Assembly: GCA_963847665.1 (NCBI GenBank)
Contig: CAWKAO010000003.1
Span: forward strand, 569,362-633,361
Direction: 5' to 3'
Source: an uncultured Actinomycetes bacterium
Lineage (GTDB): Bacteria; Actinomycetota; Humimicrobiia; Humimicrobiales; Humimicrobiaceae
Length of the DNA: 64,000 nt
Of this stretch, positions 7,757 to 63,148 are shown piece by piece. The notes under the pieces were generated by a model. That model saw only the letters and a program-made list of their open reading frames with translations. It did not search any database and was not told where the DNA came from. Position numbers and translations under genes: made by a program. Position 1 is the first letter of the stretch. The number at the start of each line of letters is the position of its first letter.

Positions 7757-8470
7757 ATGAAGATACATTTTAAAAAAATACTGGTCTCATTCATTGCGAT
7801 AGTAGGGTTTGTGGTATATGCGCTTTACCAGCGTAATATTGGTACCGGACAGGAACTTATAGGTGCAGTACCGGAAATGACCACTACTACTGTTGCCCAA
7901 ACATCAGCGGATAATCCAGCGGTAACGACCGAAATACAAACAGCTGCTTCAAACCCACCCCTGGATACATCTAACGGTGATGTAGCATATGAAAGTCAGG
8001 ACAGCAATGAATATGGTGATGGGGAAGACGGTGAAGATGAAGAAGATGGGTATTCCAGCAGCCAGACAACGCAAACAACAGTAAATAATACGACAACAAC
8101 TGCTCCTGCAACTACAGATACTGCCAGTTCAGGTACTACAACAAATAATACATCCGGTTCCAGCAGCACAACCACTTCGGCCGGTCTTTATAAAGACGGC
8201 CAGTTCGATGGCATTTCTGCAGATGCTTATTATGGCTTTGTACAGGTAAGGGCTATTGTACAGAACGGAAACCTTACAGATGTACAATTTTTAAGCTATC
8301 CGAATGACAGAAGCTATTCGGTCCAGATAAATACTTATGCAATGCCCCTTCTTAAATCGGAGGCAATAAAAGTCCAGAGTGCCCAGGTCAACATTATCTC
8401 TGGAGCAACAAATACAAGCAGGGCATTTATGACTTCATTATCTTCTGCCCTAACTCAGGCTCAGGTGTGA
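7757..8470 (+). CDS. membrane-anchored FMN-binding-domain protein (FMN_bind) with flavinylation motif SGAT and a long S/T/N/D/E-rich linker
   Basis: N-terminal TM helix, low-complexity T/S/N linker, and a C-terminal FMN_bind-like domain containing ISGATNTS. This matches the ApbE target motif [S/T]GA[T/S]. Confidence 0.7.
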   Translation: MKIHFKKILVSFIAIVGFVVYALYQRNIGTGQELIGAVPEMTTTTVAQTSADNPAVTTEIQTAASNPPLDTSNGDVAYESQDSNEYGDGEDGEDEEDGYSSSQTTQTTVNNTTTTAPATTDTASSGTTTNNTSGSSSTTTSAGLYKDGQFDGISADAYYGFVQVRAIVQNGNLTDVQFLSYPNDRSYSVQINTYAMPLLKSEAIKVQSAQVNIISGATNTSRAFMTSLSSALTQAQV

Positions 8471-9229
8471 ACATGAAATATATAAGAGATATGATGGGGA
8501 CCACAGTGACAATCGAGGTTGTTGACCCCGACATCACAAAAGGAGATATTGATAAAGTATTTTTATATTTTGAAAGTGTTGAAAACAGGTTTAGCGTGTT
8601 TAAACCTGATAGTGAAATATCCCTGATAAATGATGGCAAAGTTGAAAAGAAACATTGGAGTAACGATATGAAGACTATATTTGGACTTGCAGAAAAGACA
8701 AAAAAGGAAACAAGAGGATTTTTTAATATTGTCACAACTGATGGAAAATACAATCCCTCAGGTATTGTAAAGGGATGGGCAATATATAATGCTTCCAGAC
8801 TATTGCTTGCCCGGGGTTTTAAAAATTTCTACATAGATGCAGGCGGAGATATACAGGTCCATGGCCTGAATCCTGAGAATAAATACTGGAGCATCGGGAT
8901 CAAAAATCCTTTTGACCAGTCGACAGATTGTAAAAGTCATCTACCTGAAAGATTGTGGTATTGCGACTTCCGGGACATATATAAGGGGACAGCATATTTA
9001 TAATCCTCTGGAGATAAATAAGCCCTCCAGTGAGATCGTCAGCATAAGTGTTATAGGTCCCGATGTTTATGAGGCCGACAGGTTTGCAACTGCTGCTTTT
9101 GCTATGGGAAACCAGGGAATAGACTTTATTGAAGACCTGGATGGTTTTGAAGGATACCAGATAGATAAAAATGGCGCTGGTACAGAGACCAGTGGATTTG
9201 AAAAATATACTTTTTATCAAAAAATATGA
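8467..9229 (+). pseudogene. apbE: ApbE-family FAD:protein FMN transferase, interrupted by a frameshift near 8905-8935
   Basis: ORF 8467-9003 carries the ApbE N-terminal half (GTTVTIEV...YIDAGGDI). ORF 8912-9229 in the +1 frame carries the C-terminal half (IATSGTYIRGQHIYNP...ADRFATAAF). The junction lies at the A5/T4 homopolymers at 8902-8913. No signal peptide is present. Confidence 0.75.
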
Positions 9230-9242
9230 TTTGGATAATATT

Positions 9243-10769
9243 ATGAAAATAATTAAAAAAATTGATGGATTTTTAAATGGAATAACGATGTACAGGACAG
9301 TATTATACAGTCTGCTGTTAATGCTTGCAGCAGCACTTGCCTTTAGTGCCTTCGGTTTGATGCCTTTTAACCCGCTTGCTCTTATCCTTTCGACCGGATT
9401 TATTCTAGCAGTCTCTGTTCTTTCCAATGCTGTTTTTGCATGGGCCTTTAATGCGCCCAGTAATATTGAATCGGTCTATATAACAGCATTGATTTTAGCA
9501 CTGATCATAACTCCAGTTGACGGGTTGGTTAATATTGTTTTTTTAAGCTGGGTATCAGTCCTTGCCATGGCATCTAAATATATACTGGCTATTGGTAAAA
9601 AACATCTTTTTAATCCCGTAGCCATTTCCCTCGTGATCGTGAGTCTGGCTACGGCTCAGGCAGCAAGCTGGTGGGTCGCAAACCTTTTCATGATGCCATT
9701 TGTAGTTATCAGCGGGTTGCTTCTGGTCAGGAAATTAAAAAGATTTGACCTGGTCCTGGCTTTTCTTACTGTTATGCTTGCTACAAGCTCGATATTCAGT
9801 CTGATAAATGGGCAGGATCTATTGTCAGGGTTACAGAGGGCATTAGTCTATTCTCCCATGCTGTTTTTTGCCTTTATAATGCTGACAGAACCGATGACTG
9901 TACCTCCCGGGAGGTTAACAAGAATATTATATGGTGCAATTGTAGGGTTTTTATTTGCTCCCCAGATCCATATAGGTTCGTTCTATCTTTCTCCTGAACT
10001 GGTTTTGCTCATGGGGAATGTTTTTGCTTATATTGTAAGTCCCGATAATAAACTGATATTGACATTGAATAAGAAAGAAGAGATAGCATCAAATATTTAT
10101 AATTTTGAGTTTGAGCCTGACAGGAAACTGTCATTTAAACCCGGACAGTATATGGAATTTACATTGGAGCATCCTTCACAGGACAGCCGCGGCATAAGAC
10201 GTTTTTTGACAATAGCATCATCACCAACTGAAGAAAAACTGGATCTGGGTATTAAATTTTATGATAGACCCAGCAGTTTTAAAAAATATTTGATGGCTGC
10301 AGGAACGGGCCATAAAATGGTTGCATCCCAGCTGGCAGGCGATTTCACACTGCCCGAGGATAAAAATAAGAAACTGGTATTCATTGCAGGCGGGATCGGC
10401 ATAACACCATTCAGGAGCATGATAAAGTATCTTCTTGACAGGAGTGAAAAGAGAGACATAGTCCTGTTTTACTCCAATTGGACCTGTGATGATATTTCAT
10501 ACAAGGAAATTTTTGATGAAGCAGAAAAGAAACTAGACATAAAAGTAGTATATTCGATTGTCAATGATCCGTCTGTCGTGCCAGATAACCATATACGCTG
10601 TGGATTATTAAATGAAAGAGATATTATTGAAGAGGTACCGGATTATAGGGAAAGGCTCTTCTTTATTTCGGGTCCACCTTCCATGGTAAATACTTTTGTG
10701 GCTTCCCTGAAAAAGATCGGTGTAGGAAAGAATAATATTAAAACTGATTATTTTCCGGGTTTTGCTTAA
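9243..10769 (+). CDS. membrane-anchored FNR-like oxidoreductase: N-terminal polytopic domain plus C-terminal FAD-binding and NAD(P)-binding domains
   Basis: Roughly 6 TM helices are followed by RRFLTIASSP (a flavin-binding RxYS-like motif) and GGIGITPF (NAD(P)-binding). The upstream in-frame start at 9171 overlaps apbE. No His pairs suggesting b-type haem are present. Confidence 0.7.
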   Translation: MKIIKKIDGFLNGITMYRTVLYSLLLMLAAALAFSAFGLMPFNPLALILSTGFILAVSVLSNAVFAWAFNAPSNIESVYITALILALIITPVDGLVNIVFLSWVSVLAMASKYILAIGKKHLFNPVAISLVIVSLATAQAASWWVANLFMMPFVVISGLLLVRKLKRFDLVLAFLTVMLATSSIFSLINGQDLLSGLQRALVYSPMLFFAFIMLTEPMTVPPGRLTRILYGAIVGFLFAPQIHIGSFYLSPELVLLMGNVFAYIVSPDNKLILTLNKKEEIASNIYNFEFEPDRKLSFKPGQYMEFTLEHPSQDSRGIRRFLTIASSPTEEKLDLGIKFYDRPSSFKKYLMAAGTGHKMVASQLAGDFTLPEDKNKKLVFIAGGIGITPFRSMIKYLLDRSEKRDIVLFYSNWTCDDISYKEIFDEAEKKLDIKVVYSIVNDPSVVPDNHIRCGLLNERDIIEEVPDYRERLFFISGPPSMVNTFVASLKKIGVGKNNIKTDYFPGFA

Positions 10770-27811: not shown

Positions 27812-27900
27812 GAGAGCTTACCAGAAGCTCTAAAATCCCTAAACTGCAAAAACAAGTATTTATATCCAGATGATAAAATACAGGATCAAAGGAGAGTCTT

Positions 27901-28938
27901 ATGAAAGGCAAAATGAAAGCACAGCTTTTTTATGGACCGGGTGATGTCAGGCTTGAAGAAATCGATATTCCTGAAGTAAGGGCCGGTGAGGCACTGGTCA
28001 GGATCAAGAGCGCATTGACCTGTGGTTCTGACCTGAAGACTTATAAGAGGGGACACCCGACGATGATAAAAGATGGTTCGGTTTTCGGGCATGAATGGTC
28101 CGGAGATATAGTAGAAGTAGGAAGTGGAGTAGAGGGATTTAAAGAGGGGGACAGAGTAGTCGCAATGAATTCTGCACCCTGTTTTCAATGTTATTACTGC
28201 AAATTGCAGCGCTACTCGATGTGTGAAAACTTCGTTTATAATAACGGAGCCTATGCGGAATATATCAAGATACCTGAAAATATTTTAAAAATAAACACGA
28301 TCAAATTACCAGATGGTCTGAGCTATAAAGAAGCAGCACTGACGGAACCTTTTGCCTGTGTGGTCCATGGTGTAGATGTATCCGATATAAAAGAAGGAGA
28401 TATTGTAGCAATAAACGGAGCAGGCCCTATAGGTCTTTTCTGGGTGGCTATGGCAAAACTCAAAGGTGCAATAGTCATTTCGACAGACCTTTCCGAAGAT
28501 AGGCTCAAAGTCGCAAAAGGATTTGGTGCAGATTTCATAATAGATGCATCCATCGTCGAAGACCAGGTAGCAGAAGTCAAAAAACTTACCGATGGTGGCA
28601 GAGGAGTCGATGTCGCTGTGGATGCAAGCGGTTTTCCGAAAGTTTGGGAAATGTCTGTAAACATGGGCAGGAAAGGTGCGACTATAAATCTTTTCGGGGG
28701 ATGTCCCTCCGGCACTTCCATCAGTCTTGACACGGGTCTTCTGCATTATTCCGAGTTATCCATCATAGGCGTATATCACCATACCCCATATTATGTGAAG
28801 AGGGCATTTAAATTAATCGAGAACAAGCAGATAGATGCTTTAAGATTTATAACTGATGACATGCCTCTTGAAGATCTTGTCGATGCCCTGGAATTAATGG
28901 GTAAACAAAAAGGGATAAAATATAATATAGTGATGTAA
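27901..28938 (+). CDS. zinc-dependent alcohol/polyol dehydrogenase (MDR family)
   Basis: CGSDLKTY...GHE catalytic zinc motif and a structural-zinc Cys cluster (CFQCYYC...C). Confidence 0.8.
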   Translation: MKGKMKAQLFYGPGDVRLEEIDIPEVRAGEALVRIKSALTCGSDLKTYKRGHPTMIKDGSVFGHEWSGDIVEVGSGVEGFKEGDRVVAMNSAPCFQCYYCKLQRYSMCENFVYNNGAYAEYIKIPENILKINTIKLPDGLSYKEAALTEPFACVVHGVDVSDIKEGDIVAINGAGPIGLFWVAMAKLKGAIVISTDLSEDRLKVAKGFGADFIIDASIVEDQVAEVKKLTDGGRGVDVAVDASGFPKVWEMSVNMGRKGATINLFGGCPSGTSISLDTGLLHYSELSIIGVYHHTPYYVKRAFKLIENKQIDALRFITDDMPLEDLVDALELMGKQKGIKYNIVM

Positions 28939-28959
28939 TATAAGTCTGGGAAACAAATT

Positions 28960-29983
28960 ATGAAGGCATTATATTGTTATAATGATAAGGACTTCAGGAT
29001 AGAAGAAGTGAAAAAGCCGTCCATTGATGATGATGAAATGCTGATAGAGATGCTTTATTGCAGTCTTTGTGGTTCTGATGTCATAAAGATCTTCGATCCA
29101 GGTCTAAAAAAACCCGATATATACGGTCATGAAGTCGTAGGAAAAATCGTAGAAGTCGGGGCCAGGGTGACAAGATTTAAAATCGGGGACACAGTAATCG
29201 CTGCACACCATATACCATGCGGCAAATGTAACTACTGTAAGCATGGAAACCATACTATGTGTGACCAGTTTAAAAAAACCAATATTGTACCAGGCGGTTT
29301 TTCACAGTACATAAAACTTTCGGAAAAACATATAAACAATACTACTTTTAAACTTCCGGAAGGATTTGATCTTCTCAAAGCCCTGTTTATTGAGCCGCTT
29401 GCCTGCTGCATAAGAGCAATGGATCGCATTCAAAGGCTTCCCGGGGATATATTTTCAGTCACAGGTGCAGGTGCAATAGGGATTTTATTTCTTCTACTGA
29501 TAAAGTTTGAAGGTTTAAAATCCGTAGTGATCGATATGGATCCTGAACGTCTTGAACTGGCTAAATCACTGGGTGCAGATATTATAATAGACCCTTCAGA
29601 TAATGAGAGTACTGTGTCACAAAAGATCAGAGATGTATTTCCTGCAGGAATAGATGCAGCCATTCTTACCGTAACAAATGTCATATACAGTCTCCGATGC
29701 GATCACATACATAAGGCCAGGCGGAAGCATAAATATATTCGGTGTATCAGAAAAAAACAGTGTAATACCCGTTGATTTCGGAAAGTTATATAAAAATGAA
29801 CTTACAATAAAAAGCACATATTCTGCGACACCAGATACTCTTGCAAGAGCATACGATCTAATAACTACAGGTAAAATCGAAGTTGCACCACTTATTTCTG
29901 ATGTCTTTTCCCTTGATGAATTCAAAAAAGGTCTTGATATGATGCTCAGCAGGAAGATCTATAAAGCTTTTTATAGACTGTAG
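28960..29983 (+). pseudogene. second MDR zinc alcohol dehydrogenase, frameshifted near 29670-29690
   Basis: ORF 28960-29775 is ADH-like through AAILTVTNV, then becomes nonsense. ORF 29678-29983 in the +1 frame carries the ADH C-terminus (IRPGGSINIFG...). It is paralogous to the intact upstream ADH. Confidence 0.7.
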
Positions 29984-31121: not shown

Positions 31122-31661
31122 TTAATAAGATCCTGTCAGTGTTGTTCTGGCAGCCCTGACGTAGGACTGAAAATCAGGGTCGCTAAAAAGAATGACCTGC
31201 ACAAGTTCTATTCCTGTATTATTTTTAAGATATTGCCAGATAGTCTTTATTGCGATATTGGCTGCATCTTCTACAGGATAACCAAATATCCCTGTACTTA
31301 TCGACGGAAATGATATACTTTTCAGGCCATTTTCTTCTGCGACCCTTAGGCTATTATAATAACAGTTTTTAAGGTCTTCCGGGTCATCAGGGTTTCCATT
31401 GTAAACAGGCCCGACGGTATGTATGACATGACTTGAAGGAAGATGGTAACCATATGTTATTTTAGCTTCACCTGTAAGGCAGCCACCCAGCTTTCTACAT
31501 TCTTCCCAGAGTCTGGGGCCCGCAGCCCTGTGTATCGCACCAGATACACCCCCGCCTGGGGTCAGTTCACTGTTTGCTGCATTGACTATTGCATCTGTTT
31601 CCTGCTTTGCAATATCTCCCCTGGACAGGATTAATCTGGATCTGTTTATATCATATTCCAT
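31122..31661 (-). CDS. macro-domain protein (O-acetyl-ADP-ribose deacetylase-like)
   Basis: Macro-domain motifs DAIVNAAN and GGGVSGAIH. Confidence 0.8.
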   Translation of the reverse strand: MEYDINRSRLILSRGDIAKQETDAIVNAANSELTPGGGVSGAIHRAAGPRLWEECRKLGGCLTGEAKITYGYHLPSSHVIHTVGPVYNGNPDDPEDLKNCYYNSLRVAEENGLKSISFPSISTGIFGYPVEDAANIAIKTIWQYLKNNTGIELVQVILFSDPDFQSYVRAARTTLTGSY

Positions 31662-31751
31662 AAACGATTTATCTCCTGTAAAAGATGTCTAAAGAGCCAG
31701 TGGCGGAGTAACAGGTTATGAACAGACAACAATACTAAGTAAATTATACTA

Positions 31752-33015
31752 CTATATTCTTATATTTTTAATCCTGGGTGTTTTCAGGAATAAAAGCATA
31801 AAAATCGATACAAGAGAAAGTGAGGCTCCTGTTATAAAAGCCGCTTTGAAACCGGCAAATTGCCAAATAAGTCCAAATATTATCGAAGCTGGAAGTGCTG
31901 CAATACCGATAGAGAAGTTATAAAACCCATATGCAAGTCCACGGTTCTCCATTGATAAGATCGCCGACAAGGGCTTTTTCTGTCCCCTCAGTAAAGCCAA
32001 AGAACAGTCCATAGAAACCAAACAAAGCCCAGATATGCCATAATGAATCTGCGAATGCAAAACCGATATATGTGATAAAATACACTGACCACCCGATCGA
32101 TATCATCGATTTCCTGCCGGTTTTATCAGAAAGGTAACCGCCCGCTATGCTGAACAGTGATTTTGACAGATGAAGTACTGCCCATAACAGCGGAATATAT
32201 GCTGTTTTAATACCCAGATCCGAAGCCCTTAAAAGAAGAAAGGCGTCCGTTGAATTTCCAAGAGTAAAGATTATTATAATGGATAAGAAATACGAATAGT
32301 TTTTACCTAATTTTTTGAAATCCCTGAATCTAAGTACAGGTTCTTTTATTTTGGGTTCTTTTGTTTTGGTGGTTTCAGCATTTATATCATTATTATTGCA
32401 GACACTGTTTTCTTTTGTCTTTTTATATTCTTTTACGCCAAAGATGACCAGAAGAACTGCAATAGCCCCGGGAATATATGAGAAGAGAAAAACTGTCTTG
32501 AGATCCAGCAGCAGGAGAGTCAGAAGAGCACTTGCTATAAGCGGTCCTACGACTGCACCAGCGTGGTCCATGGATCTTTGGAAGCCGAAAGCAAAACCCC
32601 TCTTGTTTTCAGGTGCAAGATCACATATCATAGCATCCCTCGGGGAAGACCTTATTCCTTTGCCCAACCGGTCTGATATCCTGAACCCGAGGAGAACCCC
32701 CCAGGAGTTAGCAATACCTATCAGGGGTCTTAAGAGATTTGAAAAAGTGTAACCCGATGCGACAAGGACTTTTCTTTTCTGGGTCTTATCAGAAAGCCAC
32801 CCGGAAAATAATTTTAAGAAGCTGTTTAAGCTCTCCGCCACTCCTTCGATTATGCCTATTACTGCAGAACCCATACCTAAAACTGTTTTTATGAATATGG
32901 GAATCAGTGGGTAAATCATCTCAGAAGCGATATCATTAAAAAAGCTTACGAGCCCCAGGATATAAATGCTTATCCAGTTTCTTCTGAGATTGTTTTTTAC
33001 TTCATTACTTACCAA
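31752..33015 (-). pseudogene. MFS transporter, frameshifted near 31975-31995
   Basis: ORF 31918-33015 carries MFS TM helices 1-11 and ends TEGTEKALVGDLINGEPW*. ORF 31752-32060 in another frame continues ENRGLAYGFYNFSIG... (TM12). Confidence 0.7.
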
Positions 33016-33033
33016 TATACGAGACCGATCTTC

Positions 33034-36855: not shown

Positions 36856-37010
36856 CGGCTTACTAATTTATATTTGGTTAAAAAATATATAAAATATAAT
36901 AATATTTAATTAACAGACAGGGTATTCATTTTACATTATTTTAATGAAATTTTAATTTGTTTTTAGGATTTTTTTAAAAAATTTTCTATCTGGGGACAAA
37001 AGGAGTAAAA

Positions 37011-38169
37011 ATGAATGATATAAGTGATCTTTCAAGGGACATGAAAAGCATACTTGATTATAAAGCTACAGATAAAATGATGATAAGCCTCTATCTGAAC
37101 GTAGATGCTGCCAGGGTCTTGAAAAAAGATTTTTTAACTAGCCTTAATTCAATGATTGTAAATACGAGATCTGAAATAGAAAAATATGGTAATTACAGCA
37201 AAAGCCAGAAGAAGAACATTTCAGACCTGATGGAAAAGATAAAGGTATATATAAATGAGACATTTTTACCTGGGACAGCAAAGACATTATTGCTATACGT
37301 GGGTGAGGATGGTACCTGGAGCGAAGTAAAGCTTCCGATCATACTGAAGGACAAGATCATAATAGATCCTAAACCACATACCCAGGTCCTAAGGTCATTT
37401 CTAAATAATGTAATAAGATACGGTATCCTTTTGATTGATAGAGAAAAGGCCCAGATATATCTTGCATATCTTGGTGAGATCAAAGGATATCTTGGAGCTT
37501 TTATAAGTGATGTGCCGCCAAAAGTGAACTTCAGGAGGGAGGCTGCATTCAAGGAAAAAAATATCCTCAGCAGGATAGAGGAAAAACTTCATCATTTTTT
37601 TAAAGCCATCAATAGCCGGACCATGCAGCTTTTAAGGGAAGGAAAATTCGATAACCTGATACTTGCTGGCAGAAGTGACGTACTTTCGCAATTCAATAAT
37701 TACATGCACAGTTTCCTTCAGCAGAAATGCATAGGCAGTATCCTTGCAGAACCTGATGACGCACCTCGTGAAATCAGCGAGAAGGCGAAGGTGCTTATAC
37801 AGGAATACGAAACCGGGTTAAAAAGTGACATGATAGACAGGCTTATTAGACGAATACAATCCTAATGGAACAGGTGTTCTTGGTGTAAAGGCAGTGATCG
37901 GTTCCCTGATGCTTGAACAGGTAAGGACCCTTTTAATCGATGCAGATTTCTCTACACCGGGTTATGTCTGCGAGAGCTGTGGTTTTATCACAGTAGAAAA
38001 AAAAGAGGAGTGCCCTTACTGCAAGGGAGATCTTTTATTCTATAATGATATAACCGATGAAATAATAGAGGTCGCACTTAAACAAAACTGCGAAGTATTT
38101 GACGTATCTGCAAACCAGAGGCTTATAGAAGCAGGGAACATCGGGGCGATCTTGCGGTTTAAGCTGTAA
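37011..38169 (+). pseudogene. bacterial eRF1/Pelota-like (baeRF1-type) protein with C-terminal zinc ribbon, interrupted by an apparent +1 frame break at about 37838-37846
   Basis: The central domain resembles eRF1/Pelota domain 2 but lacks GGQ. After DMIDRL (frame 3) the conserved continuation LLDEYNPNGTGVLGVKAVIGSL... is in frame 1, paralleling eRF1 [23 protein letters not shown]. A CxxC...CxxC ribbon is inserted in the C-terminal domain. Confidence 0.55.
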
Positions 38170-39544: not shown

Positions 39545-40599
39545 CTAATTGATCTTTCTTACTGAACCCCTTATTACGAGGTGAGGGTCAAAGACTATTT
39601 TTTCAATCACCTTTTTGTTTGGGTTCTCGATATTTTCTATCAATATCCTTGCACTCTGTATGCCTATCCTTCTCTGGGCTGGTGGATAGTTGTGAGCGGA
39701 GGGGTTAATGCGCTCGTGACTTTGATATTGTCATAGCCTATGATGCTGTAATTTACTGGAATATTAAAATGAAGTTCATTTGCTACACTGTAGACTCCCA
39801 GGGCTAAAAGGTCACTGATTGTCAGTATACTGGTAAAATCCAGGCTTAAGTTCTGTTCATTCTCAGTAAGCAGGTTTTTAAAGACTCCATAACCGCCATC
39901 CATTGAGAGTTCTTTTGCCCTCAGTATCAGATCTTCCCGCGGTTTCAGGCCATGCTTTTTCATGGTCCTGAAAAATGATTCGACATACTGTCCGGCAAGG
40001 GAAGTATCGTAAGGGCCGATAAAAAGCAGGATGTTTTTATGGCCATTATTTATTAAATATTCAAGAGCGATTTCGGCACCCTTCCCATGGTCGGTATATA
40101 CATAGCTGATATTTTCATATCTGGGTAGACAGTCCAGTATAACGGTGTTTATGTTGTTTTCTATCAGAAATTCTATATTTTTACTTTTATCATCAATGGG
40201 TGAAATAATTATCCCGTCTACTCTTTTGGAAAGCATAGACAAGATATTTCTTCGCTCACGTTCATTGTCATAGTTCGAATAGCTCACAAGCATTGAGAAT
40301 TTTTGCTCATTTAACACTTCCCCTATAGAGCTTAAGACTTCTGTATAAAAAGGGTTGTTGAGGTCGTTTAAAATAACGCCTATGGTATTTGTCCTGTTCT
40401 GCCTTAGTCCCCTTGCAAGTGAATCCGGATAATAGTTATATTCTTCTGCCAGCTTTGTTATTTTTTCTATTGTCTCCGGGCTGGTCCTCGGGTCATTTGA
40501 TAGAGCCCTTGAGACAGTTGAAGGGGCGACCCCTGCGATTTTTGCGAGATATTTAATAGTGACTTTTTGGTGGTTTAAATTTTCATCTGTACTTGACAT
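39545..40599 (-). pseudogene. LacI-family transcriptional regulator, frameshifted near 39660-39670
   Basis: N-terminal HTH (IKYLAKIAGVAPSTVSRALSN) and a sugar-binding domain run through TTIHQPREG*. The conserved LacI C-terminus (GIQSARILIENI...VIRGSVRKIN) continues in another frame to 39545. Confidence 0.75.
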
Positions 40600-40630
40600 A
40601 AAAAAAGTAAGATCCTATAATACAATCGTT

Positions 40631-48847: not shown

Positions 48848-48920
48848 AAAGAAAAAATAATAAAATGTCCGATTTTTGTGATTTAGAATAAAATATCTAA
48901 AAAAAATTCCTGGAGGAGAA

Positions 48921-50046
48921 ATGAAAAAGGATAATAAAAGGACTGTAGAGATCGAAATAAAGATAAAACAGGTTAGGGAAGTCATAGGATCTAATGATCT
49001 TTCAGGAATCCTGCTAACACAACAGTATAATATTTACTGGCTGACGGCGGGAGGCAATAACCATGTCCTCTGGGATGATCAGTATGGTATTATCGGTATC
49101 CTTATAACCAATGACAGAGCTATAGTACTGGCTGAAAACGGTGATATCTGGAGGGTAAGGGATGAGGAATTTTTTAATTATCCTTTCGAATATATTAAAT
49201 ACGAATGGTATGCTTCAAACCATGCAGCTGAAGCAAAAAAGATCGCAGGGAATGGCAGGTTTGGAACTGATTCTTTCAATCCCGGATTTGATGACCAGGT
49301 AGATATCAATCCGTTATTGAGCCCATACAGGTCAGTCTTTCAGCCATATGAGGCCGAGAGGTATTTAAAACATGGCAGGTTCATTGCAAGAGTGATAACA
49401 GATGTATGTATGTCATCCAAACCTGGAATGCGGGAAAACGAGATCGCTGCAATGTTTGCATCTGAAAGCATAAAAAATAACTATACTATATTTGTCCAGC
49501 TTCTAGGCAGCGATGAAAGATCACTCAAATACAGGCATCAGGTCGTTACGGATAAAAGAATGGAAAAGCATTACAGTTTTTGTGGAGTAGCAAGATACCA
49601 GGGATTTACCTATCCTGTCAACAGGGTCGTATCATTTGGAGAGCCGGATAAAAAACTTCAGGAAAACAACAGGAAAATAGAGACTGTTTATGCACTTCTT
49701 AATAAAAATGCGAAAATAGGCACAAACCTCAGTGAAATATATAAAAAACTGCCAGATATTTATGAGACGGCTGGAATTGAAGAAAGATGAATGGAGGAAC
49801 CATTCTATAGGTGGCACAACAGGATACATGCCGCGTGAAAACCAGCTTATGGATGGTGTAGACTACGAAATAAGGGAAAACAATATGATAGGCTGGAACC
49901 CTTCCCTTCCGGGAGTAATGGCTGAAGATGTCTATTTCAGGACTAAAGATGATATGGAGTTTGTCACCTGGGACGACAGGTGGCCCTCACAAAAAGTAGA
50001 TGCTGAAGGTGAAGAGGTGATCCGTCCTGCAATACTGGTCTTATAG
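48921..50046 (+). pseudogene. M24-family creatinase/prolidase-like hydrolase, frameshifted at about 49785 (extra A in an A-run)
   Basis: ORF 48921-49790 has a creatinase-N-like domain plus the start of the pita-bread domain. ORF 49732-50046 carries the C-terminus (WRNHSIGG...). Removing one A from GAAGAAAGATG restores AGIEEDEWRNHSIGG. The canonical metal-binding His/Glu residues are only partly conserved. Confidence 0.7.
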
Positions 50047-50527: not shown

Positions 50528-51553
50528 ATGCTTAAAATGGGAATCATAGGTATGGGGAAAATGGCGGTAGCGCATGCTGATTGGATCATAGCCAATAAGG
50601 ATATGGAACTTGTAGCAATATGTGAAAAGAACGAAGCAAGGCATGAAGAGATAAAAAAGCAGTACAATGTACCTGTTTTTTCTGATGTAGATGAAATGCT
50701 GAAAACTACCGGTCTTGACATGGTGGTGATAGTCACCACAAATGAGGTACATGAGATGCTGACCATAAAAGCACTCAACAGTGGAAAAGATGTAATCGTT
50801 GAAAAACCCATGAGCATATCTTATGAGAGTACCCAAAAGATGATAAAAGCAGCAGAAAAAAATAAAAAACAGATCTTTGTCCACCAGTCAAGCCGATGGG
50901 ACAGGGATTTTCTTTTAATAAAAGACATGATAGCTTCAGGACTTATAGGCGATATCCTGGTCTTAAAGACTTTTGTGATGTACTGTGATGAAGGATGGCC
51001 CAGCTGGGGAATAGACGGTATGGGGAATCCATGGAGGATAAAAAAAGAATTTTACGGAGGCATGCTTCTTGACTGGGGTCCTCATCTTGTGGACCAGACA
51101 ATCCAGATAATGGGAAAAGACCCTGCAGGAGTCTATGGCATTCTCCAGAATGCAGTCTGGTCAAAAGAAGTGGACGATCATTTTTTGGCAATTCTTAAAT
51201 ATGATAATAATGTGTACTGCCAGCTTGAATGCAGTAATAACAGCAGGATAACACTTCCAAGATGGCATATCATAGGTACAAAGGGCACCATTGAAGTCAA
51301 GGGCAAACCCGAACCATTCTGGGATGAAGTCGAAATCAATTATATTAAAAAGAACGGAAAAAATGACATCCAGACCACAAAACTGGTCGGTATTAAAGAA
51401 TCAGGTCTTGAAGGCGGTTTTTATGATGACCTGATACCATATATGAAAGGCAAAAAGAAGGCTTTTGTCACGATGTATGAAGCAAGTAAGGTCATAAGGG
51501 TACTTGACCTTATCAGGGAGTCCAGCGAAAAAGGTGCTTTTATAAAATTTTGA
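50528..51553 (+). CDS. Gfo/Idh/MocA-family NAD(P)-dependent oxidoreductase
   Basis: N-terminal Rossmann GIIGMGKMA and a C-terminal Gfo/Idh/MocA domain. ATG at 50528 is preceded by SD AGAGGTG. Confidence 0.8.
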   Translation: MLKMGIIGMGKMAVAHADWIIANKDMELVAICEKNEARHEEIKKQYNVPVFSDVDEMLKTTGLDMVVIVTTNEVHEMLTIKALNSGKDVIVEKPMSISYESTQKMIKAAEKNKKQIFVHQSSRWDRDFLLIKDMIASGLIGDILVLKTFVMYCDEGWPSWGIDGMGNPWRIKKEFYGGMLLDWGPHLVDQTIQIMGKDPAGVYGILQNAVWSKEVDDHFLAILKYDNNVYCQLECSNNSRITLPRWHIIGTKGTIEVKGKPEPFWDEVEINYIKKNGKNDIQTTKLVGIKESGLEGGFYDDLIPYMKGKKKAFVTMYEASKVIRVLDLIRESSEKGAFIKF

Positions 51554-51584
51554 TAAATATTTTTCAGAAAGAGGAGCAGATAAA

Positions 51585-52941
51585 ATGTCAAAGAGAGCGG
51601 CACAATGGGGCGAGGAAGCAAAGACAATTTCAAAAATACTTGAGAAATCTCCTGATATAGACAAATCAAAGAGGATAACAACAGCAGAATTTAAAAAGCG
51701 ACAGCAGAATGTCATGGATGCTCTTTCTGCAAATGGAATAGACTGTGCATTTGTATACTCGAATGAACATTATAACGGGGATGTACCCTATCTGGGGGGA
51801 AATACAAACATCTCTATAGAACCGGTTGCAGGTGTTATCGGTAAGGGTGGTTTTCATATGCTTGCAGGACTGGAGGGCGGTTATGTAGCTGAGCAGCTTG
51901 CCGGAAGGGCAGGGATCAAGGTCCATAAAGTAGAGATGCTCAAGCTTGCTGATGAGGAATATCCGGTGGACGCAGAAAAGTTCGAGGATGTCATTGAAGA
52001 GGCAGCTGGAGGAAGGCCAAAAGTAGTAGGGTTGCTTACACCAAGGGCGGTCTTTCCGGTAGATATGTATGAATTCATTCTTGAATATCTTGGCAGTTCA
52101 GGAAAAGTGGTCGATGCCCAGGAACTTTACTATAAGATCAAATATGAAAAAAGTGAAATGGAAATGGACCTTATAAGGGATGCAAGCCTCATCTGTGATG
52201 AGATGCTAAAAGGGATGCTTGCAGTATTAAAACCCGGGATGCTGGAAACGGAAGTAGCGGGCTGGGGATATGCAATAGGCCAGGAGCTTGGTTCTGAAGA
52301 ATTTGGATTTGATGTAATGGTGACAGCAAATGAGGCAAACAGGACCCTTATAGGCAAAGCTTTAAACCGCCCGATAATCGAAGGTGATATTGTACATCTC
52401 GGAGTTGCCCCAAAAAGAGATGGACTTACCGCTTGTGAGCGGGTAAGCGTTGTCGCAACATCATGACCCTAAAAATATAACATCGCAGCAGAAATACTGG
52501 ATCAGTTTTATTGAAGAAGCTTTTAAAGTCGGTCTTGAAGCATATAAAAAAGTCGCTGCTGAAAATCTTCCTGCAAAACTGCAGGAGCAGGCTCTTGAAA
52601 ACTATTTTAAATCCAGGGAAGAAGAAGTGTCAAAAATGATCGGGAAAAAGATAGACCTGGTAAGGCAAAAACCATATACAGGCACACATAATGCGGGTTA
52701 TACAGAATGCCAGGAATTCTATGGTGCAATAACCCTTAACTCAGAAGAACCGCTTGGTAACAGGATAGTGACAATGCTCGATGTCGCTGTAAGGGGAGTC
52801 GGAAATAAATGGGATGATATCGTCATCCCTGGTCTTGATTTTGTACTTGTAGAAAAGACTCTCGGTAAGTTCGGTAAACAGGTGGAAGTATTAAATAAGT
52901 TACCAATAAATGTACAGCATCTGGTCGGGGCAAGGTATTGA
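51585..52941 (+). pseudogene. second M24-family creatinase-like hydrolase, frameshifted near 52450-52462
   Basis: ORF 51585-52466 has the creatinase-N domain plus the first half of the pita-bread fold. ORF 52450-52941 in the +1 frame carries the remainder (YTGTHNAGYTECQEF...). Confidence 0.7.
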
Positions 52942-60859: not shown

Positions 60860-61002
60860 GGGCTGAGAAGAAATAGTTTTAAGGAGGTGATAGTTTGGTA
60901 TTCTTAATTTATTAATAAAAAAGGAGGTGATTTTTATAAATTAGTAGTGGGTAGTACGAACTTGGATTTTACATTAAATATTTTAGAGGAGGCAAATCTA
61001 TA

Positions 61003-63148
61003 ATGAAAGAAGATAAGTACCCAAATCTTTTTAAACCACTAAGGATCGGAAGTGTAGTTGCTAAAAATAGGATTAACTTTGAGCCTACAGCCATTAGTTG
61101 TTCCAATGCTGACGGTTCTGTAAGTGAACTGGATATAGCAGTATATTCAGAGATAGCCAAGGGTGGCTACAGTATGATCAATATTGGCGGGTGTACTCCA
61201 GATTCAAAGACCGGCCGGGTGACCGTTACCGGTGTAATCATCGATGAGGATAATATGATACCTGGAATGGCAAGGCTGGCAAAAAGTATCCAGAAATATG
61301 GAGCACTTGCTATACCTCAGATACAACACCCGGGGAGGCAGTGCCCCATGCCTAAAGGTAGCTACATGTCTACCAACGATCAGGTGGTCAAGCTTCCATG
61401 GTCTGCGGGACATGAGATCGTTTTTGCAAATGCAGAAGAAAAAGGTAAAGAGATTAAAGCAATGTCCACACAGGAGATCCTCGAACAGGTTGAATTATGG
61501 TCTCTGGCCGCCTGGAGATGCCAGGCAGCAGGGTTTGATGCAGTATGCCTGCACGCTGCGCACGGTTATCTTATGTCAGCATTCCTGAGCCCATATCTAA
61601 ATCGTCGTATCGACCGTTTTGGAGGAAACTTTGAAAATCGTATGCTTTTCCCATTATCAATCATCAAAGAGATCCACAATAAGTGCGGAAATGATTTTCC
61701 GGTTATTGTACGTTTTTCTGCTAATGAATGGGTTCCTGGTGGAATAGATATTGAAGAAAGCAAAAGAATTGCAGTAGCACTGGAGGAAGGTGGAGCTGCT
61801 GCGCTTGATTTAAGCCAGTGTATTCAGGAGACTCCTGGCGCTGGTTTTGACCCTATGCATTATCAGGAGGGCTGGACAATATATTCTGCTGAAGCAGTAA
61901 AACCGCTCGTAAAGATACCGGTAATCATAAGCCATGCTCTAAGGCATCCGGATGTCTGCGAGAAAATAATTGCTGATGGCAAAGCTGATATGATCGGTAT
62001 GTGTCGACAGGCACTCGCTGATCCTTATTGGCCTCTAAAAGTCCAGCAGGGCAAAGAAGAAAAAATCAGGAAGTGCATATCATGTCTTACAGGTTGCTGG
62101 CAGGAATCCCTCATGGCTAAGAAAGACATAGCATGTGCTGTCAACCCGAGTCTGTGGTGATCTGAACTTCTATAATATGGATAAAAGCCCGGCTAAGAAG
62201 TCCTTAAAGATAGCAATCGTAGGTGGCGGTCCGGCTGGTATGGAAGCTGCACGATGGGCAGTCCTTCGTGGTCACAAGCCCATTATTTTTGAGAAGAAAA
62301 ACGAACTTGGTGGAGCCATATTAGGTTGCTGCCTTGTTCCTGACAAAGACAAGATGAAATGGCAGGCTGACTGGTTAAGGTATGAGATCCGAGACCTTGG
62401 TGTTGAGGTTAAAATGGAACATGTGCCTACTGCAGAAGAGCTAAAGAAATATGATGTGGTCTTAAATGCCACAGGTGCAGTAAGTTATGTACCTGAAGCC
62501 AATGGATTAAAAGACAAAGTCATCTCGATGGAAGCAGCGTTCTCATGTCCAAAAGCCACATGTGAGTTTTATCCAAAAGGAAGTGGAAGAAAGGGTGTCA
62601 AGCTTGGAGAGAAAGTAATAATCTGGGGTGATCATTATGGCGCTGCAGACCTTGTTGCTTTCCTGGGTGCAGCCGGTAAAGATGTGACCGTTGTAACAGA
62701 CAGGAAAGAATTTGGTTCAAGTGTAGAAGTAATACATATGTATGTACTTAGGAAACGTATGGCCCAGGGTGATGCTGAAGCTCTCCATTCAAAACCATAT
62801 AAATACCCGGTCAAGGTATTCCAGGGCTCGACCTTATATAACATCGGTGAAAAAGAAGTCCAGATCATAAGTAATAACTTAAACATCACAAAAGTCCAAG
62901 CCGATGATATCGTAACATGCTACACGAGACCGAATACAGAACTTGCTGGAGTATTTGAAAAAGTCGAAGCTGCAGGAATACCAGTTGTAACAGTTGGAGA
63001 TGCTAAGAGCCCAAGAAATCTTCATGCTGCAATTAAAGAAGCTGCATCCTTTATCCTTCAGCTTGAGCCTGATCATGTAATAAAGAATCCTAATGGTGCC
63101 CTTATTGATGATCTACCGATAGATGTTAAAGGACAGCTTGGTTTTTAA
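61003..63148 (+). pseudogene. OYE-family Fe-S flavoenzyme (2-enoate reductase / 2,4-dienoyl-CoA reductase-like), split by a 1-nt frameshift at about 62155
   Basis: ORF 61003-62160 has an Old Yellow Enzyme TIM barrel plus the Cys cluster CISCLTGCWQ and ends CAVNPSLW*. ORF 62135-63148 in the +1 frame carries the FAD/NAD(P)-binding domain (IAIVGGGPAGMEAA). Skipping T62155 gives CAVNPSLGDLNFYN..., colinear with FadH. Confidence 0.7.

Follow-up and report, generated by a model that had tools for sequence, protein, structure and literature searches.

A family 10 bacterial aeRF1 homologue related to the hibernation factor Balon, and interrupted by one extra base, in an uncultured Humimicrobiia genome

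A three-domain gene divided between two frames

We analysed a 64,000-nucleotide (nt) stretch of DNA from an uncultured actinomycete of the family Humimicrobiaceae (GenBank assembly GCA_963847665.1, contig CAWKAO010000003.1, positions 569,362 to 633,361 of the forward strand; hereafter the window), and describe here a gene in it for a bacterial homologue of archaeal and eukaryotic release factor 1 (aeRF1). The gene is divided between two overlapping frames of the plus strand. The first is opened by ATG 37011, runs over 37011..37865, ends at the TAA stop 37863-37865 and encodes 284 amino acids (aa), which is the product annotated in the deposited record. The reading continues in the +1 frame, which has no stop between 37837 and the TAA at 38167-38169, and the two frames overlap by 29 nt. 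Joining 37011-37844 to 37846-38169 yields a fused protein of 385 aa with three domains (Table 1).

Several observations support the fused protein as the proper product of the locus. A length of 385 aa is the modal length among 241 homologues recovered in a search of about 5.8 billion proteins; those listed are nearly all 382-395 aa long, mostly exactly 385, and cover 97-100% of the fusion at 50-69% identity. In a 25-sequence alignment the junction is free of gaps, with ...SDMIDRL/LDEYNPNG... of the window (the slash marks the junction) standing opposite ...NDLIDRLLDEYNPNG... of an orthologue; across the junction itself, MIDRL/LDEYNPNG pairs with LIDRLLDEYNPNG of the orthologue, again with no gap. 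A preliminary description, made from the sequence alone, had reported a +1 frame break within 37011-38169 (+), and the gap-free alignment of the fused product bears this out and places the break at 37843-37848. The locus should accordingly be annotated as a single 385-aa protein of bacterial aeRF1 (baeRF1) family 10, or Balon type, rather than as a 284-aa hypothetical protein.

Table 1. Positions of the features in and around the gene, and of other frame-broken genes in the window
Feature	Position	Strand	Details and basis
Shine-Dalgarno-like GGAG	37002..37005	+	5 nt upstream of ATG 37011; direct sequence reading
N-terminal domain, residues 1-118	37011..37364	+	AlphaFold 2 secondary structure, profile alignments to 4af1 and 8v9j_z, clade conservation
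Linker DPKPHTQ, middle domain (eRF1 domain 2 / baeRF_family10, RNase H-like) and connecting helix	37365..37844	+
GGQ-loop equivalent, residues 166-181	37506..37553	+	R175-R176-E177 at 37533-37541
1-nt insertion site (CTTATTA), frame +1	37843..37848	+	DNA comparisons, protein alignment
Junction-spanning stretch of the product, frame corrected			...SDMIDRL[L/I]DEYNPNGTGVLGVK
C-terminal domain (eRF1 domain 3 / Pelota-type), residues 279-385, including TAA	37846..38169	+	+1-frame translation
Zinc ribbon CxxC-x10-CPYC	37969..38022	+	C320, C323, C334, C337, in the C-terminal domain
ApbE, frame-broken	8467-9229
Zinc alcohol dehydrogenase, frame-broken	28939-29775		truncated in ADH_zinc_N
LacI, frame-broken	39545-40614		1-nt deletion at about 39673-39676, relative to an 81-86%-identical orthologue
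M24 peptidases, two, frame-broken	48882-50046 and 51546-52941
Oxidored_FMN/Pyr_redox_2 fusion, frame-broken	60955-63148

Family, fold and distribution

The fused protein is a three-domain member of the aeRF1 superfamily and belongs to baeRF1 family 10 (Pfam PF18854, baeRF_family10). It matches PF18854 with 43.7 bits (E 4.4e-11, against a cut-off of 27.1), residues 122-259 aligning with profile positions 1-138 of 143; weaker matches are to other baeRF families and to eRF1_2, and the homologues of the fused protein carry precomputed PF18854 assignments. A library of 1.84 billion cluster representatives contained 2,850 relatives with E <= 1e-3, of which 308 also passed E <= 1e-30. There the window clade is represented by a single 50% cluster (628 bits), and the relatives that come after it score at most 259 bits; ten of these were scanned against Pfam, and all ten are core PF18854 members with 80-129 bits. 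Residues 13-375 of Msmeg1130 of Mycobacterium smegmatis, rebuilt from a PDB alignment, reach 125 bits on PF18854, so the family includes an experimentally solved, ribosome-bound member. In the literature on Balon and baeRF-1 that we examined, we found no link between Pfam's baeRF family 10 and a solved hibernation factor.

Consistent with this assignment, a profile built from 130 sequences (the clade and wider relatives) and searched against the PDB matched Msmeg1130 first and over its full length, under the name 'Ribosome hibernation factor Balon' (E 4e-33). It was followed by the archaeal factor aRF1 (4AF1, E 1.5e-27), eRF1 (E about 3e-20), Balon of Psychrobacter urativorans (E 1.5e-17), Rv2629 (E 2e-15) and Pelota (E 2e-11). 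An AlphaFold 2 (AF2) model made from the same 130-sequence alignment has a predicted local distance difference test score (pLDDT) of 87.5 and a predicted template modelling (TM) score of 0.76; it replaced an earlier run on 25 close homologues, in which pLDDT was 69.8 and the C-terminal domain was poor. Foldseek comparison of the model with the PDB gave ribosome-bound (70S) Msmeg1130 as the top match (E 3.7e-24, TM score 0.63-0.67) and aRF1 as the second (6.8e-22), followed by eRF1 and other Balons (P. urativorans Balon, E about 4e-19 to 1e-18, TM score 0.56-0.60), with Pelota/Dom34 at 9e-11 at best.

The protein nevertheless lies outside every named functional family that we compared. Against the NCBIfam hibernation-factor equivalogs NF052287, NF052288 and NF052289, named after AOC03_06830 (Psychrobacter Balon), MSMEG_1130 and Rv2629, respectively, it scores 62.0, 36.7 and 21.6 bits in full-length matches, whereas the cut-offs are 330, 480 and 320. 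Against TIGR03676, the aRF1/eRF1 equivalog, it scores 63.2 bits over its full length, below the cut-off of 234.7. By these scores it is a homologue, not an equivalog, of the three hibernation-factor families; with GGQ and NIKS both absent and the TIGR03676 cut-off failed, its sequence also indicates that it is not a classical release factor.

The preliminary description had placed the protein in the eRF1/Pelota fold as a baeRF1-type member and had proposed profile searches and structure prediction of the fused product. The family assignment stands. Of the twofold likeness, the part to eRF1 holds, with Balon now at the head of the list, and the part to Pelota is much weaker. Its remark that such proteins are rare and functionally uncharacterised is out of date: it has been superseded by the 2024 work on Balon, according to which about 20% of representative bacteria have a homologue (PMC10901736), and Msmeg1130 falls in the same Pfam family.

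The N-terminal domain is modelled as a beta strand, two long helices and three beta strands. In the full-length profile alignments (4af1, 8v9j_z) it aligns lengthwise with the N domains of aRF1 and Msmeg1130; a profile of this domain alone gave no significant match in the PDB, only a weak one to the N domain of Balon (E 0.6). The release-factor motifs NIKS, YxCxxxF and GTS are not conserved here in the clade or profile alignments. The segment opposite the N-IKS of aRF1, at the tip of the helical hairpin, is variable within the clade and is followed by the invariant K67/K68, which together with an LNSM motif are the only invariant positions of the domain. Where YxCxxxF would be expected, the linker reads IIIDPKP. 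Its continuation, DPKPHTQVL, is closer to DNKFHTEAL of eRF1 than to the family 10 consensus DxxPYxRPL.

The preliminary description had also noted that the central domain has no GGQ, and hidden Markov model (HMMER), profile and ungapped alignments agree in placing R175-R176-E177 in the GGQ-equivalent columns. In the ungapped alignment (A3), these three residues stand under columns that in the wider family are G (72%), G (76%) and W or F (77%). HMMER places R-S-Q of the clade opposite the mutant AAQ of eRF1, in an alignment that spans residues 116-321, and the A3 family profile places g-g-w opposite the GGQ of aRF1 4af1. Across the clade the columns hold Arg or Lys, Ser or Arg, and Gln or Glu, so that both glycines are lost; at the position equivalent to the glutamine, 98 of 113 members have Gln and 15 have Glu. 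The Glu of the window copy is shared by an independent, 94%-identical contig (L056, described below), which argues that Glu177 is not a sequencing error. The loop, residues 166-181, is the lowest-confidence segment of the AF2 model. An alternative pairing of AAF, rather than RSQ, with GGW came from a local MAFFT alignment with long insertions and was overruled by A3 and the HMM alignments.

Among the wider relatives the same loop varies. When 135 of them were aligned locally, GGWxQ occurred in 17 and GPGGGQ in one (P0133), and the GGWxQ relatives among those scanned also match the acVLRF1 model. The loop is thus heterogeneous within family 10, and hydrolytic competence may differ between its subgroups.

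The C-terminal domain aligns with those of eRF1, aRF1 and Msmeg1130 and is modelled with a pLDDT of about 88-96. Its four ribbon cysteines are invariant in the clade, and 105 of the 135 wider relatives have four cysteines. The ribbon aligns both with the C...H / CxxC insert of aRF1 4af1 and with a cysteine-free stretch of Msmeg1130. A zinc ribbon inserted in the Pelota domain is the classical, and ancestral, state of aeRF-1, and in many baeRF-1 families its place is taken by an insert of two strands, perhaps a ribbon that has degenerated (Burroughs and Aravind, PMC6514570). Together with the structural work on Balon (PMC10901736), we infer that the cysteine-free stretch of Msmeg1130 corresponds to the beta-hairpin through which Balon contacts EF-Tu. 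The inserted CxxC...CPYC ribbon of the preliminary description is accordingly there, in domain 3; what does not stand is its novelty, for its position matches that of the Cys/His insert of aRF1, and it is an ancestral aRF1 insert that has been retained.

The gene is transcribed divergently from a lipid A biosynthesis-type acyltransferase gene and convergently with nrdR, followed by plsY, and a P-type ATPase gene lies beyond the acyltransferase gene; the flanking genes are on the opposite strand. Relatives of these neighbours recur in 55 related loci: the P-type ATPase in 37, the lipid A acyltransferase in 49, NrdR in 48 and PlsY in 40. Among the 53 loci from species-representative genomes, 52 come from uncultured Actinomycetota or unclassified metagenome-assembled genomes (MAGs) with the same neighbourhood; records of related loci name Humimicrobiaceae, Hydromicrobium and Calidifonticultor, and one 30%-identical protein from a member of Cytophagia lacks the synteny. 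In this Humimicrobiia-type lineage the gene is a stand-alone, single-copy and strictly syntenic one, and it looks vertically inherited. This pattern differs both from that driven by horizontal gene transfer described for baeRF-1 (PMC6514570) and from the stress-operon, raiA-adjacent contexts reported for Balon (PMC10901736). Rfam searches around the gene gave no match at E <= 1, promoter and terminator scans stayed at the level of shuffled sequence, and PADLOC gave no match to an anti-phage defence system.

Two further observations concern these loci. In two MAGs (Y23_7dBSe1.bin.152 and BS1bin.12) the gene lies on two contigs each (L013/L031 and L041/L055), which could reflect paralogy or mixed strains. 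Two genes beyond the P-type ATPase gene, a gene on the minus strand (31122-31688) encodes a Macro-domain protein (152 bits), with an MFS transporter gene (31918-33033) between the two; relatives of the Macro-domain protein occur in 14 related loci, at variable distance from the ATPase gene.

Origin of the frame break

The frame break is a single inserted base peculiar to the window record, and most likely a sequencing or assembly indel. At the break the window reads GAC AGG CTT A TTA GAC (CTTATTA, one base extra), whereas its two nearest full-length orthologues, both syntenic, read GAC AGG TTA CTT GAT and GAC AGG CTC CTG GAC. A closer comparison is provided by L056, an independently assembled contig from Logan run ERR11523668 that was found as one further member in the 90% cluster of the annotated 284-aa product. 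Over 281 nt aligned around the break (window 37780-38060) its DNA is 94% identical to the window, and it reads GAC AGA CTG ATA GAC, in frame at the break. Measured against L056, the simplest assignment of the extra base is to one T of 37846-37847, the removal of which gives CTT ATA GAC (L-I-D); removing A37845 or one T of 37843-37844 instead gives L-L-D, matching the more distant orthologues.

The frame is uninterrupted in 51 of the 55 related loci, and the remaining four are cut by contig ends, so that the gene is in one frame in every locus that holds it whole. Moreover, conservation in the C-terminal part is no lower than elsewhere, with 70-71% identity to the nearest orthologues compared with 64-68% for the upstream part, and the window copy deviates at 2 of 87 near-invariant columns (family median, 1), which indicates that there has been no decay downstream of the break.

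The same kind of break recurs in the window. At least six further genes are frame-broken, by insertions as well as deletions, with good homology on both sides (Table 1); the preliminary description had counted seven, of which six were confirmed. With the baeRF gene, about 7 of about 62 window genes are broken by insertions and deletions, each with homology kept on both sides, a pattern that suggests residual indels in an indel-rich, probably long-read, assembly. Other 'split' genes in this record need equal caution.

We consider it unlikely that the insertion is real in the organism, as a very recent inactivating mutation that would leave a 284-aa fragment of the N-terminal and middle domains without the GTPase-binding C-terminal domain. 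The break is present in the deposited record and annotated as such, and L056 carries a separate 1-nt deletion, located in the gene's A8 run (window 37996-38003), which shortens its product to 346 aa and could hint at relaxed selection; the sequence without reads does not separate such a mutation from an assembly error. Against it stand the number of frame-broken genes in the window, which with both halves well conserved fits assembly indels better than biology, the undiminished conservation of the C-terminal part, and the intact, syntenic gene across the lineage.

Programmed +1 ribosomal frameshifting at AGG-CUU-A, which would yield the full-length protein in the manner of prfB (RF2), is very improbable. 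CUU is the slippery codon of prfB, and there is some outward resemblance: CUU precedes the shift, the product resembles a translation factor, the frames overlap by only 29 nt, their fusion is a perfect full-length family member and the downstream frame has not decayed. However, the extra base is missing from all 51 whole-gene loci, from the two syntenic orthologues and from the 94%-identical contig. Inspection of the break site revealed no in-frame stop (UGA in prfB), no Shine-Dalgarno-like element at the prfB spacing and no homopolymer; the next zero-frame codons are common in the genome (AUU, 24.8 per 1000; AGA, 12.5 per 1000), re-pairing from CUU to UUA would be poor, and single-base breaks of both signs affect the other genes in the same 64 kb. 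Judged by the orthologues, programmed frameshifting as a conserved feature is effectively refuted, and the break is not a programmed recoding signal, whatever its origin. The preliminary description had preferred an indel error as the more parsimonious explanation and had suggested checking orthologues for contiguity; both the preference and the check are vindicated by the orthologues and by L056, and its passing hint at an AGG-CUU slippage context is not credible given the missing stop, rare codon and spaced element and the lack of the extra base in L056.

Two other explanations were rejected. Transcriptional slippage is ruled out by the lack of a homopolymer at the break, the only long run in the gene being the A8 elsewhere (37996-38003). 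A split gene encoding two polypeptides is ruled out because the break, at residue 278, lies inside helix 252-282, which is modelled at pLDDT >90 and is continuous through it; the sole downstream start, GTG 37894, would lose the first strand of the C-terminal domain and has no clear ribosome-binding site.

Two of the other broken loci have further features of their own. At 27877-29775, one reading frame is shared by two zinc-dependent alcohol dehydrogenase paralogues arranged in tandem, with a single stop codon between them, the second being the copy truncated in ADH_zinc_N. At 7757-10769, a three-gene cluster comprises a Thr/Ser-rich protein that by eye looks secreted, with an FMN-binding-like C terminus, the frame-broken ApbE flavin transferase, and a protein of 532 aa in which a sub-threshold match to NQR2/RnfD (26.2 versus 27.7 bits) is followed by FAD_binding_6 and NAD_binding_1; the cluster looks like a module for flavinylation and extracytosolic electron transfer.

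Proposed function and its alternatives

Balon, Msmeg1130 and Rv2629 occupy the ribosomal A site without the NIKS and GGQ motifs of aeRF1 (PMC10901736). P. urativorans Balon (AOC03_06830, PDB 8RD8/8RDV/8RDW) contacts the decoding centre without touching mRNA, keeps the peptidyl-transferase centre inert and sets its C-terminal domain on EF-Tu; the EF-Tu contacts were shown for this protein, and a GFP-translation assay with and without Rv2629 and Msmeg1130 has been reported (PMC10901736). By homology with these factors, we propose that the window protein binds in the A site independently of the codon and without hydrolytic activity, silencing and protecting ribosomes, and that its zinc ribbon lies at the GTPase interface; we put the probability of this reading at roughly 0.6. 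Like the Balon-type factors, it is a bacterial aeRF1 homologue that lacks both NIKS and GGQ, and its 385 aa lie within their range of about 360-420 aa.

In the proposed mechanism, the protein would enter the ribosomal A site with its N-terminal domain at the decoding centre, where it would not read a stop codon. The middle domain would point towards the peptidyl-transferase centre without hydrolysing peptidyl-tRNA, as is expected from the replacement of the GGQ glycines by Arg-Arg (Arg/Lys and Ser/Arg in the clade) and of the glutamine by Glu in the window copy. The C-terminal domain, carrying an intact four-cysteine zinc ribbon at the site of Balon's EF-Tu hairpin, would engage a translational GTPase, and the outcome would be reversible silencing and protection of the ribosome.

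The protein resembles Msmeg1130 (MSMEG_1130, PDB 8V9J/8V9L) most closely, in its PF18854 assignment, its three domains, the lack of GGQ and NIKS, and the best profile and fold matches. It differs in having four cysteines at the ribbon site where Msmeg1130 has none, in reading H-T-Q-V-L where Msmeg1130 has F-I-H-P-L, in falling far below the MSMEG_1130 equivalog cut-off and in its housekeeping neighbourhood, whereas the mycobacterial homologues are reported to be hypoxia-induced (PMC10901736). With P. urativorans Balon it shares superfamily and fold, a sub-threshold NF052287 match and, by homology, the predicted mRNA-independent binding of the A site; the HP motif, lasso loop, bL27 trap and cysteine-free EF-Tu hairpin of Balon are not identifiable or, for the hairpin, replaced by the zinc ribbon, and its gene does not adjoin raiA. 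In Balon the HP motif is an N-terminal insertion that contacts A1492/A1913, and the middle domain bears a lasso loop around A2602 and the bL27 trap (PMC10901736).

Several points weigh against the proposed hibernation role. Identity of the clade to other family 10 proteins is only 21-29% (alignment A3) and to Msmeg1130 15-16% (Foldseek alignment), and all three hibernation-factor equivalog cut-offs are missed by a wide margin. No His-Pro occurs in residues 1-118 in 30 clade rows (the window protein and 29 homologues), although the Balon papers give no residue numbers for the HP motif. The C-terminal insert is an intact zinc ribbon rather than a cysteine-free hairpin, and 87% of the clade still has Gln at the GGQ-Gln position, which could mean a residual hydrolytic or other activity directed at the peptidyl-transferase centre. 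Finally, the gene lies between a lipid acyltransferase gene and nrdR/plsY, with no raiA, hpf or stress genes beside it, although the wider loci were not searched for hpf.

One alternative is an active peptidyl-tRNA hydrolase, which EF-Tu would deliver and which would act in release or rescue much like aRF1. Such a role was considered possible for baeRF-1 family 10 by Burroughs and Aravind, who singled the family out for a well-conserved glutamine that might allow hydrolysis (PMC6514570). The clade fits this in several respects: it keeps that glutamine in most members, it retains the ancestral zinc ribbon and an eRF1-like DxKxHT(E/Q)xL linker, and a profile of the clade alone scores eRF1 above Balon. 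With aRF1 and eRF1 the window protein further shares a colinear full-length alignment and a zinc ribbon at the same insertion point of domain 3. The glycines of GGQ are essential for its backbone conformation, however, and both are replaced here, by Arg/Lys and Ser/Arg. The glutamine has changed to Glu at least twice in the clade, the window copy included, most of family 10 has Trp or Phe at this position, and the stop-codon-recognition motifs (NIKS, YxCxxxF and GTS) are absent. The host is a bacterium, and genes in the window end normally with any of the three stop codons (TAA in 31 cases, TGA in 10 and TAG in 7), so there is no sign of a need for a substitute release factor, and stop-codon reassignment is ruled out for the window. 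We therefore regard hydrolysis as improbable.

About as doubtful, in our judgement, is the possibility that the Humimicrobiia-type clade is a distinct, vertically inherited 'housekeeping' aRF1-like factor rather than a stress-operon Balon. The ancestral zinc ribbon, the eRF1-like linker, Gln or Glu at the GGQ-Gln position and the stand-alone gene between lipid-synthesis genes and nrdR would all agree with it. Delivery by EF-Tu could then be closer to that of aRF1 by aEF1-alpha than to that of Balon, or the protein could act at the peptidyl-transferase centre without a GG backbone, by hydrolysis or other chemistry. If this were true, the clade would stand, within bacteria, midway between release factors and hibernation factors.

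A non-catalytic rescue factor like Pelota/Dom34, which would recognise stalled ribosomes with an empty A site and promote subunit splitting, is less probable still. It belongs to the same superfamily, has the same three-domain order and a non-catalytic middle domain without GGQ or NIKS, and is detected by profile and fold searches. Its match is far weaker than those of Balon and aRF1 (profile E 2e-11 versus 4e-33; fold 9e-11 at best versus 3.7e-24), and the N domain of the window protein aligns over its full length with that of aRF1. To our knowledge, bacteria lack ABCE1, which performs the splitting together with Pelota.

With the proposed ribosome-silencing role as the preferred reading, the finding is that of a divergent member of an already known family with an artefactual break, and on its own it opens no new question. 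With this clade, the Balon/aeRF1 family reaches into an uncultured class of Actinomycetota. Because the clade keeps the archaeal zinc ribbon where Msmeg1130 is cysteine-free, it provides a useful point of comparison for the conversion of a release factor into a hibernation factor.

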